Assembly: GCA_043744475.1 (NCBI GenBank) | Contig: JAYTUR010000962.1 | Span: forward strand, 1 to 42,176 | Reading direction: 5' to 3' | Length of the DNA: 42,176 bases | Source: Saprospiraceae bacterium | GTDB taxonomy: Bacteria; Bacteroidota; Bacteroidia; Chitinophagales; Saprospiraceae | Shown: in pieces, positions 14,516 to 37,439 of the stretch | How positions within the stretch are numbered: position 1 is the stretch's first letter | How the letters are laid out: every line of letters begins with the position of its first letter | The notes under the pieces: model-generated | Databases searched by the model: none | What the model was told of the DNA's origin: nothing | The model's input: the letters and a program-made list of their open reading frames with translations, nothing else | Position numbers and translations under genes: made by a program

Positions 14516-15118
14516 TTAATCTTTTGTTTTCTTCTTTCTCAAAAAATCAAAGAATCTCTTTTTCTTTTTAATGGGTTTTGTCTTAACCGCATCGTCGACC
14601 TTCAAAATGTAATTTGGATTTTTTACGGCGAGCGTTATGTCGCCTTCTTGATACAATGCCTGTCCTATTATCTCTTTTCCCGCAGGTCTTATATTATAGC
14701 TGTTTGGCAAAATGCCCTGCACCGTGGTTTTTGGACGACTGGCAATGTCGGTTTTCACGTCCGATTCTATTGCCTTGGCATCGGTGAGCGTGCCTGTGGC
14801 TTGAACTTGCAGCTGTTTTGCGGCGACTTGCAATCCGAGAGCTTGTTGTAATAGCTGGTCTTGAACCGTGCTAAAACGAGCTGTGTCCGTTATCACTCGG
14901 ACGCGAAAAATGATAGCAGTTTCGCCTTTGTTACTCACGCTGTCGACGCCTAATTTTTCGACGATGACGCCTGAATCTCTATTTGAGACATACACTTTCG
15001 TTGTTGTAGCGAAGTCCATAATTGAGCGAATGCCCAATCGGTTGTTAGCCACTTTTGTTTGCGCCTGTGCGCTGAAAATGATGCCTAAAAAGGCAATAAC
15101 AAAGAATGTTTTTTTCAT
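14516..15118 (-). CDS. Exported hypothetical protein (200 aa)
   Basis: Signal-like MKKTFFVIAFLGIIFSAQAQ. Lys-rich C-terminus. Confidence 0.65.
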   Translation of the reverse strand: MKKTFFVIAFLGIIFSAQAQTKVANNRLGIRSIMDFATTTKVYVSNRDSGVIVEKLGVDSVSNKGETAIIFRVRVITDTARFSTVQDQLLQQALGLQVAAKQLQVQATGTLTDAKAIESDVKTDIASRPKTTVQGILPNSYNIRPAGKEIIGQALYQEGDITLAVKNPNYILKVDDAVKTKPIKKKKRFFDFLRKKKTKD

Positions 15119-22011: not shown

Positions 22012-25000
22012 CTATCCTTTTATTGTTTGAATCCGCTTTTGAGCTTCAGTTATCTCTTTTACAATTGCATAGCCAATTGATACTTTTGCATCAATGCCAT
22101 TTTCCAATACTCTTATTAGTTCTGACAACACAGCAACTAATTGCGTATCGCTCGTCACTTGCTTCACCTCTACCGCATCACTACTCCCACCATATCCACC
22201 CTCTTTCCTCTGCTTCACTCCGCCACTACTTACGATATTATCTATCATCCTAACATGCCATGCCACATCAGGTCGTGTTAGCGCAGCGTTCGATACGAAG
22301 TATTCCGGTCCAGCTTCACTTGCAAGTACAAGCGATGGGCTTGATGGTAACATACCAGTGCGCGGTGAACCGATGTACTGCGCATCATACACGCGCCCAT
22401 CATCTTCACCGCGCACATGATATCCACCATCTTTTTTCTGTTTTACCGATGGGGCATCATTGAGTATTTTTTTCGCTGTTGCTATGTTTGCCAATACTAC
22501 CGCCACACCCGTTGCTACCTTGATAGCTAAGTCTATTGGGGTTATTGATGTACTTGCCGCAGCAGCAACGACCCCAGATATAGCTTGAGCAGTATCTACT
22601 GCAATCTTAGCTAATGCAGCAACCTTCTGTAAGGCAGCAGCCTCTGCTGTCTCATTACCTATAATATCACCAAGTGCCGAGAAAGCATTCCCTATTGCAT
22701 TTGCAAGATCTTGATAATGCGCAATAGATTTATTCACAAACTCTCTCTCCGCTTTTAAGGCATCTACATCCGCCTTAATTCTGATAGCCTTCTTTTTATC
22801 AGCTAACGCCTGTTCTAATTTCGCTTTCTTCTCAACATCGTCGCCTAAAATAGCCTTTTCTTTATCTACCTTGATTTGTAGCTCTTGTATGTCAATTTCT
22901 GCCTTAGCCTTTATGTCTGCTTTAGTCTTTTCTAATTCCTCTTTCGAGCCAGGCTTTATGGCAATAACTGGCTTTTCTATATCCCTCAGTATAGCCTCAT
23001 AATCCTGATTTAGTTTAAGCATATCTTGCTTAAACTTCTCGGTATCAGCATATTCTTTAGCCTGGTCTTCTGCTATTTTTTTAACTTTTTCCGCATTAAA
23101 TTTATTTGTTTCGGCTTGTAATTCAGCATTCATCGCCTTTTCAAGGCGTATTCTTGCAGCTGCCCCTTTTGCCACTATTTCAGGAATACCACTTTCTTCT
23201 AATTCCTTTGCCGCATCCAGTTCTTTTTTATAGCTTTCTCGGATAGCATTTAGCCTCTTTTCTTGTTCGCCTAATTTAGTGGCTGTTATCTCATCTTCGT
23301 GTTTTCTTATCTTTTCTTCAAGTTCACGGTTATGCTTATTCAGCATCGCCAATATTTCAAGGTTGGTTTTGTTTTGTAGTTCTTTTAATATTCGAGTCGC
23401 TTCCTTGCGATTTTCGGGGTCTTTCGATAGTAATAGTTCTTTCGCAATCTCTATTTGTTTATCATATTTCTCTTTTATCTTAATCGCTTCAGATTGGTCA
23501 CGTGTGGCATTCATCTGGTCAATATCATTTTGATATTGAACCAACATCTCCTTCAATTTCAATAGCTTATCCTGTTCTTTTTCGAGTTCTTTTTTCGCTT
23601 TATCATCAACCACACCACCTTCAACCTTTGGCTTTCCTTTATCTAAAACCTTATCGGTTTTTTCTGCTGCTGCGGCAATAGCATCAAATTGAGCAGCTAA
23701 TTGTGGGAATGATTTTTTAAGCTCTTCTAAAAGCTGCTGTTGTTTTAATTTTGCTGTATTTGTAACCTTGCTTTCTCGACCTAAAGCCTCCGTATAACTT
23801 TCAGAGGCGATACGCTTTGATTCGATGACTCGTAATAAGTCTCTGGCTTGCCCTGCCTCGCCATCAAATATTTTTGAATAAAAACTACCATTTTGGAATG
23901 TAGCCCTTAGTTTAGCCGCTAATTCTGTAGCACTTGACTTAGAATCATTTAAAACTTGCCGAGTTTTAACAATCGCGTCAACATAACTAAGCTGTGCAAT
24001 AGCCTGTTTATCCACGATGTTTTTCTGCCTCGTTAAACTCGCTTCAACTTCCTTACCTGCATTTATAGCAAGTATTTTAGCCAAATATTGCTGATTCACC
24101 TCCTGTAACCTATCGCGCAACTGTTCATTTGTTACTTTTTCTTTATCAAGTCCTGCCAAAAATTTAGGTTGTATTGCTACAATTTGGTCTATTATAGCTT
24201 TCCTTTTTTGGCTACCGATTTCATATTTAGTAACATTTTCAACAAGTACAGACAGCTCTGTGCGCTCTTTTTCGGTTGCCTTCAACATAGAATCCATGCG
24301 CGGCGTAAGAGAATCAAACCCTTTATTGAATTTATCAAAGAAATCAATCGCAAATCCCAAAACAGGTTTCAGCCCATTGGCAACACTTGAAAATACATTT
24401 TTGCTGAATATTTGTATGTTATCTTTTAATGTCGAAAACAACCCATCTACCGTTTTAGATTGCTTTTCCATCAGATTGAAAAACTTGCCACCTTCTTGTG
24501 ACATCGCAAAAATGGCTTTTTCAACATCCTTAAAACCAATTTTACCAGTTTCAGACATTTTGAATATCTCCGCTTCAGACACCTTAAATTGCGCAGCTAA
24601 AGCGGCAATCAGGGGTACACCTGCTTCCGTAAATTGCTTTAATTCACCACCGGCTAACTTTGTTTTAGTGGCAACCTGACCAAAAGCAAGAACCAATTGT
24701 GGAAGCTTTTCTTTCCCAACACCAGCAGCGATATTGCCCAAAGACTCCATCGTAGGGATAATCTTCTCCGTCTCAATACCCATTGCCAACAATCGCTTGC
24801 TATAATCTATCAATTCCGATTGTTCAAAAGGTGTTTTAGCCGCCAACTCTACAATCTTTTGAATCAGTAAACCCGCTTTTTCAGATGAACCTATCATCGT
24901 TTCAAAAGCGATTTGAGCCTGCTCAAAGTCTGACGCCGCTTTTATACCAGCCATACCAAACTCTAAAACCTTTTGTGCAGCAAAAGCCGCCGCCGCAACA

Positions 25001-25458
25001 CCTGCTATTTGTAAGAGCGAGCCATGCATCGGTTGTAACGACTTGGTAGCATCATCCGTCGTTTTAGACACTTTAGCTATTTCTGCATCTACTTTCTCAA
25101 TCTCCTGCGCAGATGCACCCACCTCTTTCAACTTCGCATTGTACTCCGCCGTACCACGTTTCAAGTTCTCCAACTCCTTCAGCAACTCGCTATGTTTCGT
25201 TTTGAGTTGATTGATTGACCCTTCAACCACAGGCGTAACCGCTTTGAAAGCATTGGCGTACTCCCTCAAAGCATTCTTTTGGTCAACAATGATGGTTTCC
25301 ACTTTCCGAAATCGCTCCGCCTTTTGTGCAAAGTCTTCCGTGCCTAATGTAGCCCTCCGCAGTTCTGCATTCAGGCGAGCTGCCTCCGCGGTGAGTCCTT
25401 TGAGCGTGTTATCAACTTCCTTTCCGTTTATGTATATCGTTGCGGTACTTTGAGCCAT
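22012..25458 (-). CDS. Tail tape measure protein (1148 aa)
   Basis: Long coiled-coil protein with a TMP-core-like segment GGELKQFTEAGVPLIAALAAQFKVSEAEIFKMSETGKIGFKDVEKAI. The track's TTG start at 25569 would span a terminator and promoter; ATG 25456..25458 (MAQSTATIYINGKEV) is preferred. Confidence 0.9.
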   Translation of the reverse strand: MAQSTATIYINGKEVDNTLKGLTAEAARLNAELRRATLGTEDFAQKAERFRKVETIIVDQKNALREYANAFKAVTPVVEGSINQLKTKHSELLKELENLKRGTAEYNAKLKEVGASAQEIEKVDAEIAKVSKTTDDATKSLQPMHGSLLQIAGVAAAAFAAQKVLEFGMAGIKAASDFEQAQIAFETMIGSSEKAGLLIQKIVELAAKTPFEQSELIDYSKRLLAMGIETEKIIPTMESLGNIAAGVGKEKLPQLVLAFGQVATKTKLAGGELKQFTEAGVPLIAALAAQFKVSEAEIFKMSETGKIGFKDVEKAIFAMSQEGGKFFNLMEKQSKTVDGLFSTLKDNIQIFSKNVFSSVANGLKPVLGFAIDFFDKFNKGFDSLTPRMDSMLKATEKERTELSVLVENVTKYEIGSQKRKAIIDQIVAIQPKFLAGLDKEKVTNEQLRDRLQEVNQQYLAKILAINAGKEVEASLTRQKNIVDKQAIAQLSYVDAIVKTRQVLNDSKSSATELAAKLRATFQNGSFYSKIFDGEAGQARDLLRVIESKRIASESYTEALGRESKVTNTAKLKQQQLLEELKKSFPQLAAQFDAIAAAAEKTDKVLDKGKPKVEGGVVDDKAKKELEKEQDKLLKLKEMLVQYQNDIDQMNATRDQSEAIKIKEKYDKQIEIAKELLLSKDPENRKEATRILKELQNKTNLEILAMLNKHNRELEEKIRKHEDEITATKLGEQEKRLNAIRESYKKELDAAKELEESGIPEIVAKGAAARIRLEKAMNAELQAETNKFNAEKVKKIAEDQAKEYADTEKFKQDMLKLNQDYEAILRDIEKPVIAIKPGSKEELEKTKADIKAKAEIDIQELQIKVDKEKAILGDDVEKKAKLEQALADKKKAIRIKADVDALKAEREFVNKSIAHYQDLANAIGNAFSALGDIIGNETAEAAALQKVAALAKIAVDTAQAISGVVAAAASTSITPIDLAIKVATGVAVVLANIATAKKILNDAPSVKQKKDGGYHVRGEDDGRVYDAQYIGSPRTGMLPSSPSLVLASEAGPEYFVSNAALTRPDVAWHVRMIDNIVSSGGVKQRKEGGYGGSSDAVEVKQVTSDTQLVAVLSELIRVLENGIDAKVSIGYAIVKEITEAQKRIQTIKG

Positions 25459-25481
25459 GTCTTTGTGTTTAAATTTTTGCT

Positions 25482-25518
25482 CAAAGTTCGACAGACACCA
25501 CCCCCTCAGTATGGACAT
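25482..25518 (-). promoter_or_regulatory. Late promoter-like module M5 (upstream of tape measure)
   Basis: Minus strand ATGTCCATACTGAGGGGGTGGTGTCTGTCGAACTTTG. Same 36-nt GTCC-to-TTTG frame, but the 11-mer is inverted and shifted 5 nt. Confidence 0.5.
25501..25511 (-). repeat. Dispersed motif TACTGAGGGGG
   Basis: Exact 11-mer inside module M5. Confidence 0.95.
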
Positions 25519-25549
25519 AAAAAAAGCCACACCGATTATCGGTATGGCT
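25519..25549 (-). terminator. Terminator preceding M5
   Basis: AGCCACACCGAT / ATCGGTATGGCT stem (one mismatch), then U7-8 on the minus strand. Confidence 0.7.
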
Positions 25550-25576
25550 TCATATAGTTTCAATGACAAAAATAAG

Positions 25577-27344: not shown

Positions 27345-27361
27345 TTCCTTATATTTATATC

Positions 27362-27547
27362 ATGAAATCAAAAATCAAACAACTCATTACCTGGTACCAA
27401 GAAAACCGGGAAGCCAATCGCCTATACGCCGCGGAAAATCCGTACAAACACCGCACTCACCCGCGCATCCAAGCCACCAACACAGCCCTAAAATGGTTAT
27501 ACAAACAACTAAGCCGCTTTCTTCGCTTTCTTTTCCGTCACCTCTGA
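27362..27547 (+). CDS. Candidate antisense-oriented small basic protein (61 aa)
   Basis: MKSKIKQLITWYQENREANRLYAAENPYKHRTHPRIQATNTALKWLYKQLSRFLRFLFRHL. It fills a coding-like (GC-rich) 164-nt gap between minus-strand genes. TATATTTA lies 4 nt upstream of the ATG. Confidence 0.3.
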   Translation: MKSKIKQLITWYQENREANRLYAAENPYKHRTHPRIQATNTALKWLYKQLSRFLRFLFRHL

Positions 27548-36070: not shown

Positions 36071-36301
36071 CTACTCTTTCCTTTTTTTACGTTTCGGTAT
36101 GACCGTTGACGGTATGACCGTTTTTGCCTTCTTTTTCAAGTAAGGAAAACCGCCCAAAAACAAGGCGTTTGCGCGGTCAATGGTCAAGGTATTGAAGTCA
36201 ATTTCGCCAAAGCTGCCAAAATAGTGGCGGCGCGAAAAATCGCCTTCTATGTCATATTTTGCGGCAACATCTGTTTTGAGTGCCGCTTTTTCTTTTGCCA
36301 T
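36071..36301 (-). CDS. Hypothetical protein (76 aa), Lys/Arg-rich C-terminus
   Basis: ATG ORF. Followed by the terminator at 36012..36046. Confidence 0.5.
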   Translation of the reverse strand: MAKEKAALKTDVAAKYDIEGDFSRRHYFGSFGEIDFNTLTIDRANALFLGGFPYLKKKAKTVIPSTVIPKRKKRKE

Positions 36302-36312
36302 GAGTTGTATTT

Positions 36313-37091
36313 TTAAGCAAAAATTAATTGCCCCGATGAACTTGGCGGTGTATAATGCCCCGCAGTATGCGCGGCACCGAGTTCAATTTCGACCGCAAAA
36401 GGCAAAGGTCTATACCACCGCGTCGGGTAAAATACCGTCATGCCATCGCCGACAATCCACACTTCATCGTTGCCCGTTACCCAATATTCCCCATCGGCTG
36501 TTGTCCAACCGTCGGTGATTGGGTCTAAGAGTTTGGGGTGATGTCAGGCGGGAACGCCACGAGGTCGATGGTGCGCGGTGTGCGACCGTTGGCATCAATT
36601 TCGTAATCGAAACCGCGAAAATCGCCGCCTGTGCCACCCGTAAAGCTCATGACTGTCGCAGGGCTTGATTTGCGCCCCATTTCGTGCGTTACGCCCGATT
36701 TGTCAGACACAAGTAGGACCAAACCGCAACAAGCAGACACTTTTTCGGCAAACTCTTTTTCTACTTTGCCGAAGCCTTTGAGTTTGAACTTGAGCTTGTT
36801 TTCAATTTTTGTCGTGCCGTCCTTGGTCGTGCCTTTCGTGTCAATCATGCCCGTATCGGCAATCACGCGCATTTTGCGAAAAAAGCCCTCACCAACAGGT
36901 GCACCCACAAACGAATAAGCCTCACCCACTTCGTTGCTTGCACCCACGGTCGTGATGGGCGTTGAGAGTTTGTTTTTCGACTTTGGGTCGGCGGCTAATT
37001 CGTCTGCACAAGTGAAGTAGATATCTACTTCTATGCCGGCTATATTGAGTTCATCACCTGAACAATCAGGCATAAAATTTCCTAATGGCAT
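36313..37091 (-). CDS. Predicted -1 frameshift fusion product (~259 aa) of the 188-aa gene
   Basis: Slippery CCCAAAC (plus coords 36531..36537, 0-frame C CCA AAC). The -1 frame is open from 36543 to the TAA at 36313..36315 and has no ATG until 36441. The extension stop lies 11 nt upstream of the next gene's ATG. Confidence 0.4.
36525..37091 (-). CDS. Putative major tail / structural protein (188 aa, zero-frame product)
   Basis: ATG ORF with a beta-rich sequence ...KLKFKLKGFGKVEKEF...FTGGTGGDFRGFDYEIDANG. The slippery heptamer lies 2 codons before its stop. Confidence 0.6.
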   Translation of the reverse strand: MPLGNFMPDCSGDELNIAGIEVDIYFTCADELAADPKSKNKLSTPITTVGASNEVGEAYSFVGAPVGEGFFRKMRVIADTGMIDTKGTTKDGTTKIENKLKFKLKGFGKVEKEFAEKVSACCGLVLLVSDKSGVTHEMGRKSSPATVMSFTGGTGGDFRGFDYEIDANGRTPRTIDLVAFPPDITPNS

Positions 37092-37151: not shown

Positions 37152-37439
37152 TTACTTCGCCTCAACGAGGTACGCGTAACCGACATCAACTAAGTGTTGC
37201 AAAGCTGCTTGCGCCGCTTCTTTGTCAAAACCTTCGAGTTGTTCCGCTTTGACGGTTTCAACATCCACTTTTTCGCCGTTGGCAATAGTAATGAGCGTTT
37301 CGACGTGCAAAGAGCGACCCGATGTGCTGTTGATGTGTGGTGGATGCGATTTCAAAAAGCCAAATTTCTTTGTTTCTGATTTTTCGCCTTTCCGCACTTT
37401 TGCGGAAAATACACCGCTAATTGGTTTAATATCAGCCAT
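37152..37439 (-). CDS. Hypothetical head-module protein (95 aa)
   Basis: ATG ORF downstream of the capsid gene. Its stop abuts a dispersed-motif copy. Confidence 0.6.
   Translation of the reverse strand: MADIKPISGVFSAKVRKGEKSETKKFGFLKSHPPHINSTSGRSLHVETLITIANGEKVDVETVKAEQLEGFDKEAAQAALQHLVDVGYAYLVEAK

Follow-up and report, generated by a model that had tools for sequence, protein, structure and literature searches.

Conserved slippery heptamer and selected -1 frame at the 3' end of a probable phage tail tube gene

Introduction

What is encoded between two genes of a phage when gene prediction leaves the space between them empty? The question is raised by the window analyzed here, a contig of 42,176 bp taken whole from a 4.7-Mb metagenome-assembled genome, in which a gene for a 188-aa protein (36525..37091) is separated from the next gene on the minus strand (36071..36301) by 223 nt. 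The original prediction, made from the letters of the window, gave the gap that same size and proposed that ribosomes shift by -1 at a heptamer, CCCAAAC, near the stop codon of the 188-aa gene, adding a C-terminal extension encoded in the gap.

Results

The 188-aa gene ends ..CCT GAC ATC ACC CCA AAC TCT TAG, and the heptamer within that end is in phase, as its first C (36537) is the third position of a codon of the 188-aa ORF. The features of the region are as follows.

36525..37091, minus strand: 0-frame gene from the ORF list, 188 aa, encoding a tail-tube-like virion protein (probable major tail protein)
36537..36531, minus strand: slippery heptamer CCCAAAC, read C_CCA_AAC, in phase and of the form X_XXY_YYZ
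36527..36525, minus strand: TAG, the 0-frame stop codon of the 188-aa gene, two codons past the point where the slip site begins
36546..36544, minus strand: TGA that closes the -1 frame upstream, three codons 5' of the slip site, in a frame that reads ..*HHPKLLDP..
36313..36537, minus strand: -1 frame extension including its TAA stop codon (36315..36313), made up of a linker, a Trp-rich module and a lineage-specific tail ending ..GQLIFA
36071..36301, minus strand: next gene, 76 aa, starting 11 nt after the stop codon of the extension

The -1 frame is open from 36543 to the TAA at 36315..36313, and 11 nt separate that TAA from the next ATG (36301). Because the TGA at 36546..36544 and the TAG at 36527..36525 bound the overlap of the 0 and -1 frames, any slip is confined to about six codons, and the heptamer lies inside them. 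The product extended through the -1 frame would have 259 aa, versus 188 aa for the short form. The original prediction had placed the heptamer at 36531..36537 and had given the coordinates of the 188-aa ORF, the extent of the -1 frame, the encoded peptide and the 11-nt spacing, and all of these agree with the sequence to the base or residue. Its junction, ..DITPK-LLDP.., needs correction, however, as a tandem slip gives ..DITPN-LLDP.., in which Asn rather than Lys is decoded before the slip.

How often such an arrangement arises by chance can be gauged within the window. The six frames contain 106 ORFs of 75 aa or longer, and 10 of them carry an in-phase XXXYYYZ no more than 10 codons from the stop codon, and in 3 of those 10 the -1 frame is also open for at least 55 codons past the stop. 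Heptamer plus open -1 frame in one window alone is weak evidence, and since the pattern is not rare in the window, the case must rest on comparison with relatives. We note a similar arrangement, which may be chance, in a 200-aa ORF elsewhere in the window (14516-15118, minus strand), where TTTTTTG lies in phase eight codons short of the stop and the -1 frame stays open for 66 codons, 55 of them past the stop.

Two protein searches returned 16 homologs, all of 183 to 190 aa, in a search range that included fused lengths, and an in-frame fusion of the 188-aa protein and the extension was found in 0 of the 16. The DNA of the relatives was then compared together with that of two distant copies in prophages of the same bacterial family, in a set of 16 distinct lineages, window included. 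CCCAAAC is in phase at the stop codon in 7 of the 16, at 62 to 87% protein identity: the window (WIN), L010, L011/12, L013, L014-16, L019 and L006/7. These are independent assemblies, and assembly error as the source of the frame pattern is ruled out since all seven agree. In six of the seven, no base separates the heptamer from the stop codon (CCCAAAC-TAA or -TGA). In all seven, the -1 frame encodes a linker and then a related Trp-rich repeat peptide of the form W-x-T-x-DG-x-x-W (for example, PKLTDPPLDGWQTADGEWWVTQDNQVWIVGDD..GELIFG, PKLTTSISASAWVTPDGELWTTPDGEVWVIGE and PKLIEPSAWATEGGEILLTEDGEYWLIEP), and the appended peptide spans 29 to 74 aa. The original prediction had looked to homologs for the heptamer and the open -1 frame, and seven distinct lineages keep both. 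By this comparison, conservation in the relatives lifts the slip site far above chance.

Both the heptamer and a matching -1 frame are absent from the other nine lineages (L001/2, L003, L004/5, L008/9, L017/18, L021, L022, L025 and L026), in which the gene ends in ACA CCG AAT (e.g., L001), ACA CCG AAC, ACG CCA AAC or other sequences. In the protein tree, the trait spans the whole ingroup, L006 is nested among four lineages without it, and the outgroups lack it. One gain followed by losses would be the simplest history. Uncalled gaps of 125 to 315 nt remain after the gene in L001/2, L003 and L004/5, ingroup members that have no heptamer. Those in L001 (3562-3693), L003 (3562-3687) and L004 (3559-3852) look like decaying remnants of an extension, and the -1 frame of L001 still reads ..ELIAHPLTD.., similar to the linker KLLDPITD. 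What comes right after the gene in the outgroups is an intrinsic terminator in L021 and L022 and the next gene in L025 and L026. The terminators (L021:941-1031 and L022:3062-3113) are textbook examples, with a GC-rich hairpin and a T-run, which suggests that transcription is attenuated after an abundant structural protein. Separately, in L017 (2425-2460) and also L018, which have no extension, the 11 nt that end the gene, stop codon included (CACCGAACTAA), occur three times in tandem where other lineages have the slip site, and the next gene starts immediately afterward. Replication slippage or a deletion may have left the tandem repeat behind as a scar. When contig collections were scanned with the family alignment, the metagenome and genome contigs yielded no relative and the viral contigs a single one, and tblastn with the 188-aa family found no match in 50,697 phage records.

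Selection bears on both parts of the signal. In the -1 frame, dN/dS was 0.11 to 0.27 for every divergent pair, with dS saturated, and in the two control frames of the same DNA it was approximately 0.4 to 4.5 and mostly near 1. Moreover, four changes separate the extension of L006 from that of L007, and read in the -1 frame all four are synonymous and none nonsynonymous. By these measures, purifying selection acts on the -1 frame in each of the seven lineages with the heptamer. The CCA (Pro) and AAC (Asn) codons and the preceding third-base C are invariant across the seven, and that C is retained even where Thr becomes Ile. Elsewhere in the protein, a single codon is used in all seven lineages at only 4 of 42 invariant residues of fourfold or higher degeneracy and at 8 of 39 of two- or threefold degeneracy. 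The codon counts indicate that the heptamer is conserved beyond the amino acid requirement, its synonymous positions being frozen.

Downstream of the heptamer, the RNA is predicted to fold.

36479..36524, minus strand: predicted stem-loop and putative frameshift stimulator, 6 nt after the heptamer

In the window, an outer stem in which ACCCAAT (36524..36518) pairs with ATTGGGT (36485..36479) encloses an inner hairpin. For each lineage, the minimum-energy fold was taken of 62 nt starting 5 nt after the heptamer; that of the window has -21.7 kcal/mol and a z-score of -3.4, and 0.3% of dinucleotide shuffles were as stable. The outer stem begins 5 to 7 nt after the heptamer in all seven heptamer lineages. 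Scored likewise against dinucleotide shuffles, L014 (z = -4.1) and L010 (-3.5) resemble the window, and the values are -2.3 for L011, -1.4 for L013 and about -0.5 for L006/7, where the structure is a local 8-bp hairpin. Among native 62-nt windows of the region, the fold ranks in the top 0.5 to 2.3% in four lineages (top 2.3% in the window), at 8% in L013 and at 24% in L006. The stems are thus weak in L006/7 and L013. Moreover, RNAalifold on the aligned lineages gave no consensus structure and no compensatory pairs, and the stems differ in register among lineages and are built in part from pairing of a conserved Trp codon with CCA. The predicted stem-loop is likely a frameshift stimulator, and we go no further than likely because of the alignment result and the differing registers.

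What the -1 frame encodes has a recognizable core.

36448..36507, minus strand: conserved core of the extension from the cross-lineage alignment, WTTADGEYWVTGNDEVWIVG (W-x-T-x-DG-x-x-W-x-T-x-D-x-x-V-W)

The extension matched no Pfam or PHROG domain and carries no Ig, FN3, BACON or CBM signature, and a HMMER search against 1.84 billion representatives gave weak repeat-type matches only. Matches to RCC1 and WD40 were discounted as generic similarity to DG-x-x-W blades. The best relevant match was P0019 (E = 7.6e-4), an otherwise unrelated protein of 354 aa without a Pfam or PHROG match, in which the motif occurs four times in tandem and in frame (e.g., VNGWANKDGEFWVTGDNEKVWVIN). Because of those four tandem copies, we take the motif to be a small modular unit. 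A search of the rest of the window and of the assembly found no second copy. Modeled by itself with AF2, the extension gave no reliable fold (pLDDT 39), and the Ig-like or lectin-like fold that the original prediction had guessed at is unsupported by that model and by the Pfam search. A docking tag shared with the capsid gene was also considered and rejected, as the capsid stop codon has no slip site nearby and the motif has no second copy.

What the 188-aa protein does can be approached through its locus and its fold. The window is a long-tailed phage. Along its minus strand lie lysis genes, a ClpP-type prohead protease, a putative capsid protein of 329 aa, a 95-aa ORF and the 188-aa gene, followed by small ORFs, a 456-aa protein, a DUF6712 protein, several unassigned genes and the tape measure gene.

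25569..22012, minus strand: tape measure gene

The 188-aa gene is thus the second gene past the putative capsid gene, with the tape measure about ten genes (about 11 kb) farther downstream. It does not lie beside tail chaperones and tape measure, and its position is unusual for a tail tube gene. Pfam, PHROG and NCBIfam gave no match for the 188-aa protein, the extension or most neighbors, and searches of PDB sequences gave nothing meaningful for the 188-aa family (profile search) or for the 456-aa neighbor. Several relatives, some with the extension and some lacking it, also have a homolog of the 76-aa gene downstream.

As modeled by AF2 (pLDDT 65), the 188-aa protein folds into a beta-sandwich that carries a single helix, with a long loop left disordered at residues 36 to 68, and its strand-helix order is that of tail tubes: a beta-sandwich, one flanking helix and a long beta2-beta3 loop. 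The top Foldseek matches in the PDB are nearly all tail or neck proteins of the tail-tube fold, among them monocin MttP, lambda gpV, SPP1 gp17.1 and proteins of GTA, T1 and 80alpha. The scores are weak: probability goes up to 0.99, but no E-value is better than 4e-3 and no TM exceeds 0.38. Among viral models, the best fold matches (E = 3e-8) are uncharacterized proteins of flavobacterial siphophages; fold matches to proteins of Polaribacter and Nonlabens phages point to a Bacteroidota-type phage. From the modeled fold, we lean toward the 188-aa protein being the tail tube, the alternative being another virion protein of the tube fold, such as a terminator or neck component. The outgroup terminators after the gene fit an abundant structural protein.

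Two observations concern neighboring parts of the window. The 95-aa ORF that separates the 188-aa gene from the capsid gene (37152-37439, minus strand) adjoins a repeat and hairpin spacer after the capsid gene. Its counterpart directly upstream of the homolog has 127 to 149 aa in most relatives (102 and 117 aa in two short contigs), and the ORF of the window may be shortened or use another start. Finally, another gap between two minus-strand late genes (27345-27547) contains a small ATG-initiated ORF on the plus strand, and no slip site linking the flanking minus-strand genes was seen there.

Discussion

How the gap is read seems best explained by a programmed -1 ribosomal frameshift that yields two forms of the 188-aa protein. 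We consider that explanation likely, and that the frameshift is functional seems slightly likelier still. The heptamer is conserved and the -1 frame is under selection, which supports the original prediction of a -1 shift at CCCAAAC that adds a C-terminal extension. Most ribosomes would stop at the TAG (36527..36525) and make the 188-aa form, presumably the major product. In a minority, tRNA-Pro on CCA and tRNA-Asn on AAC would move back one base onto CCC AAA, probably aided by the stem-loop that starts 6 nt downstream. A stop codon directly after a slip site can promote shifting, and the adjacent stop codon in most relatives may aid the slip too. Shifted ribosomes would continue in the -1 frame and complete the 259-aa form, ..DITPN-LLDPITDGWTTADGEYWVTGNDEVWIVG..LIFA, with predicted junction-spanning sequences ..PPDITPNLLDPITDGW.. 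and ..FPPDITPNLLDPITDGW...

Other ways of expressing the gap, or of not expressing it, have to be weighed. Stop-codon readthrough is ruled out because the 0 frame meets another stop 16 codons on. Could the gap hold a separate small gene, translated on its own from a non-ATG start? Within the -1 frame, GTG 36462 is the sole common start codon that gives a listed ORF (49 aa), and ATC, ATT or ATG occurs within -1 codons 4 to 7 in most lineages, such that a rare AUH codon in the linker might serve. The conserved W-x-T-x-DG-x-x-W block, however, lies upstream of GTG 36462. Moreover, ATG, GTG and TTG are all missing from the extension frame of L006/7 and L019, and the first of them in L011 comes no earlier than codon 47 of 54, in a frame whose linker also lacks ATH codons. 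A separate start is therefore very unlikely. It would also leave the frozen heptamer, and the joint loss of heptamer and extension, unexplained. An independently initiated non-ATG ORF was the outcome that the original prediction had set against its own, and the frozen heptamer, the purifying selection and the several lineages that lack starts all disagree with it.

Alternatively, RNA polymerase rather than the ribosome might make the shift by slipping on the CCCC or AAA run. The same protein would result, and the site does have two short homopolymer runs, but they are only 4 and 3 bases long, and productive transcriptional slippage requires much longer runs of A or T. What is conserved, moreover, is an exact in-phase X_XXY_YYZ with a structure at the classic spacing of 5 to 7 nt, and we infer a ribosomal mechanism, with transcriptional slippage unlikely. 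There is as little to recommend the idea that the -1 frame is a sequence accident or the decaying remnant of a once-fused domain, no longer expressed. Decay does occur in the family, as several ingroup relatives without the heptamer keep uncalled gaps of 125 to 315 nt, and comparable patterns of heptamer and open frame occur by chance in the window. Neither a remnant nor an accident, however, would be expected to show purifying selection at saturated synonymous divergence in all seven heptamer lineages, on which seven independent assemblies agree. Thus, we retain programmed ribosomal frameshifting.

How often ribosomes would shift at C_CCA_AAC is a further question. In Escherichia coli, efficient heptamers have all-purine or all-pyrimidine ends, and those ending in AAC are inefficient because the bacterial ribosome poorly tolerates re-pairing from AAC to AAA (PMC4066793). 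Efficiency at C_CCA_AAC may therefore be low, which would suit a minority decorated subunit. There are precedents nonetheless, as A_AAA_AAC in an IS element is a proven case of frameshifting (PMC4066793), haloarchaeal viruses use G_GGA_AAC and A_AAA_AAC, and C_CCA_AAG is highly shift prone in E. coli (PMC5009743).

What the extension does may follow from where it would sit. The virion would contain bare subunits and a minority form whose C terminus is prolonged by a flexible linker and a small beta module rich in Trp. If other decorated tail tubes are a guide, such a module would stand out from the surface of the tail, where it could contact host surface glycans weakly. That the module is an adhesin contacting the host is offered tentatively, on that analogy. 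We speculate further, and with more doubt, that the appended piece is an undescribed Trp-rich three-strand module of about 20 residues (W-x-T-x-DG-x-x-W-x-T-x-D-x-x-V-W), a new glycan-binding decoration of the tail surface that is found in tandem in at least one other protein and is reached here through an AAC-ending, eukaryote-style heptamer poorly used by E. coli ribosomes. If so, the rules of slippage would differ in the host lineage, which is probably Bacteroidota.

Why the site matters does not depend on that speculation. A conserved hidden gene product would be added to an uncharacterized phage family, and a virion surface module would be missing from its annotated proteomes, since all gene callers end the protein at about 185 aa. 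The seven lineages with the signal and the nine without it, some apparently losses, make a natural test set for -1 frameshifting on X_XXA_AAC in bacteria beyond E. coli, where it is deemed inefficient. Moreover, P0019 would be a useful handle for solving the structure of the module, and if the module does bind host glycans, it would bear on the adsorption and host range of these phages.

Tail or capsid proteins extended by frameshifting are a well-known principle, with several precedents for tail tubes (PMC8718954, PMC6669499, PMC5009743), and the present case, as we read it, works in the same way. As in Bacillus phage SPP1, a single tube gene would give two forms, the major one short and the minor one extended at its C terminus, with the frameshift right after the tube domain. 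The shift that makes SPP1 gp17.1* is +1, whereas the shift here would be -1 on C_CCA_AAC, and there is no sequence relationship to gp17.1. In SPP1, gp17.1 and gp17.1* occur at a ratio of 3:1, and the extension is dispensable for infectivity (PMC8718954). Moreover, the SPP1 extension is an FN3 domain (Ig-fold) of about 100 aa (PMC8718954, PMC6669499), whereas the extensions here have 29 to 74 aa and are Trp-rich.

Long forms made by frameshifting are also found in Lactobacillus phage A2, in Listeria phages A118, A500 and PSA and in the capsid of T3/T7 (PMC5009743), and TpeX of the lactococcal 936 group is a further such case (PMC6669499). As in A2, A118, A500, PSA and TpeX, a programmed frameshift at the 3' end of the gene would add a surface domain to a fraction of a major structural protein. 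The extensions of A2, the Listeria phages and TpeX, however, are Ig-like domains or large carbohydrate-binding modules, unlike the small Trp-rich module here, and the Listeria tail gene shifts by +1 rather than -1. The capsid gene here has no such slip site, and the host group differs from those of A2, the Listeria phages and the 936 group, the present phage being of the Bacteroidota type as far as its modeled folds tell.

In the direction and placement of the shift, the site resembles lambda gpG/gpGT, in which a heptamer that is in phase and close to the 3' end of a tail-module gene likewise gives a -1 slip (PMC5009743). The lambda G/GT genes are directly upstream of the tape measure and their products are not in the virion, whereas the gene here is about ten genes upstream and its product has a predicted tube-like fold. 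A G/GT tail assembly chaperone pair was therefore rejected, as position and fold are both wrong. What is distinct in the present system is the heptamer, a very small non-Ig module and an uncharacterized protein family.
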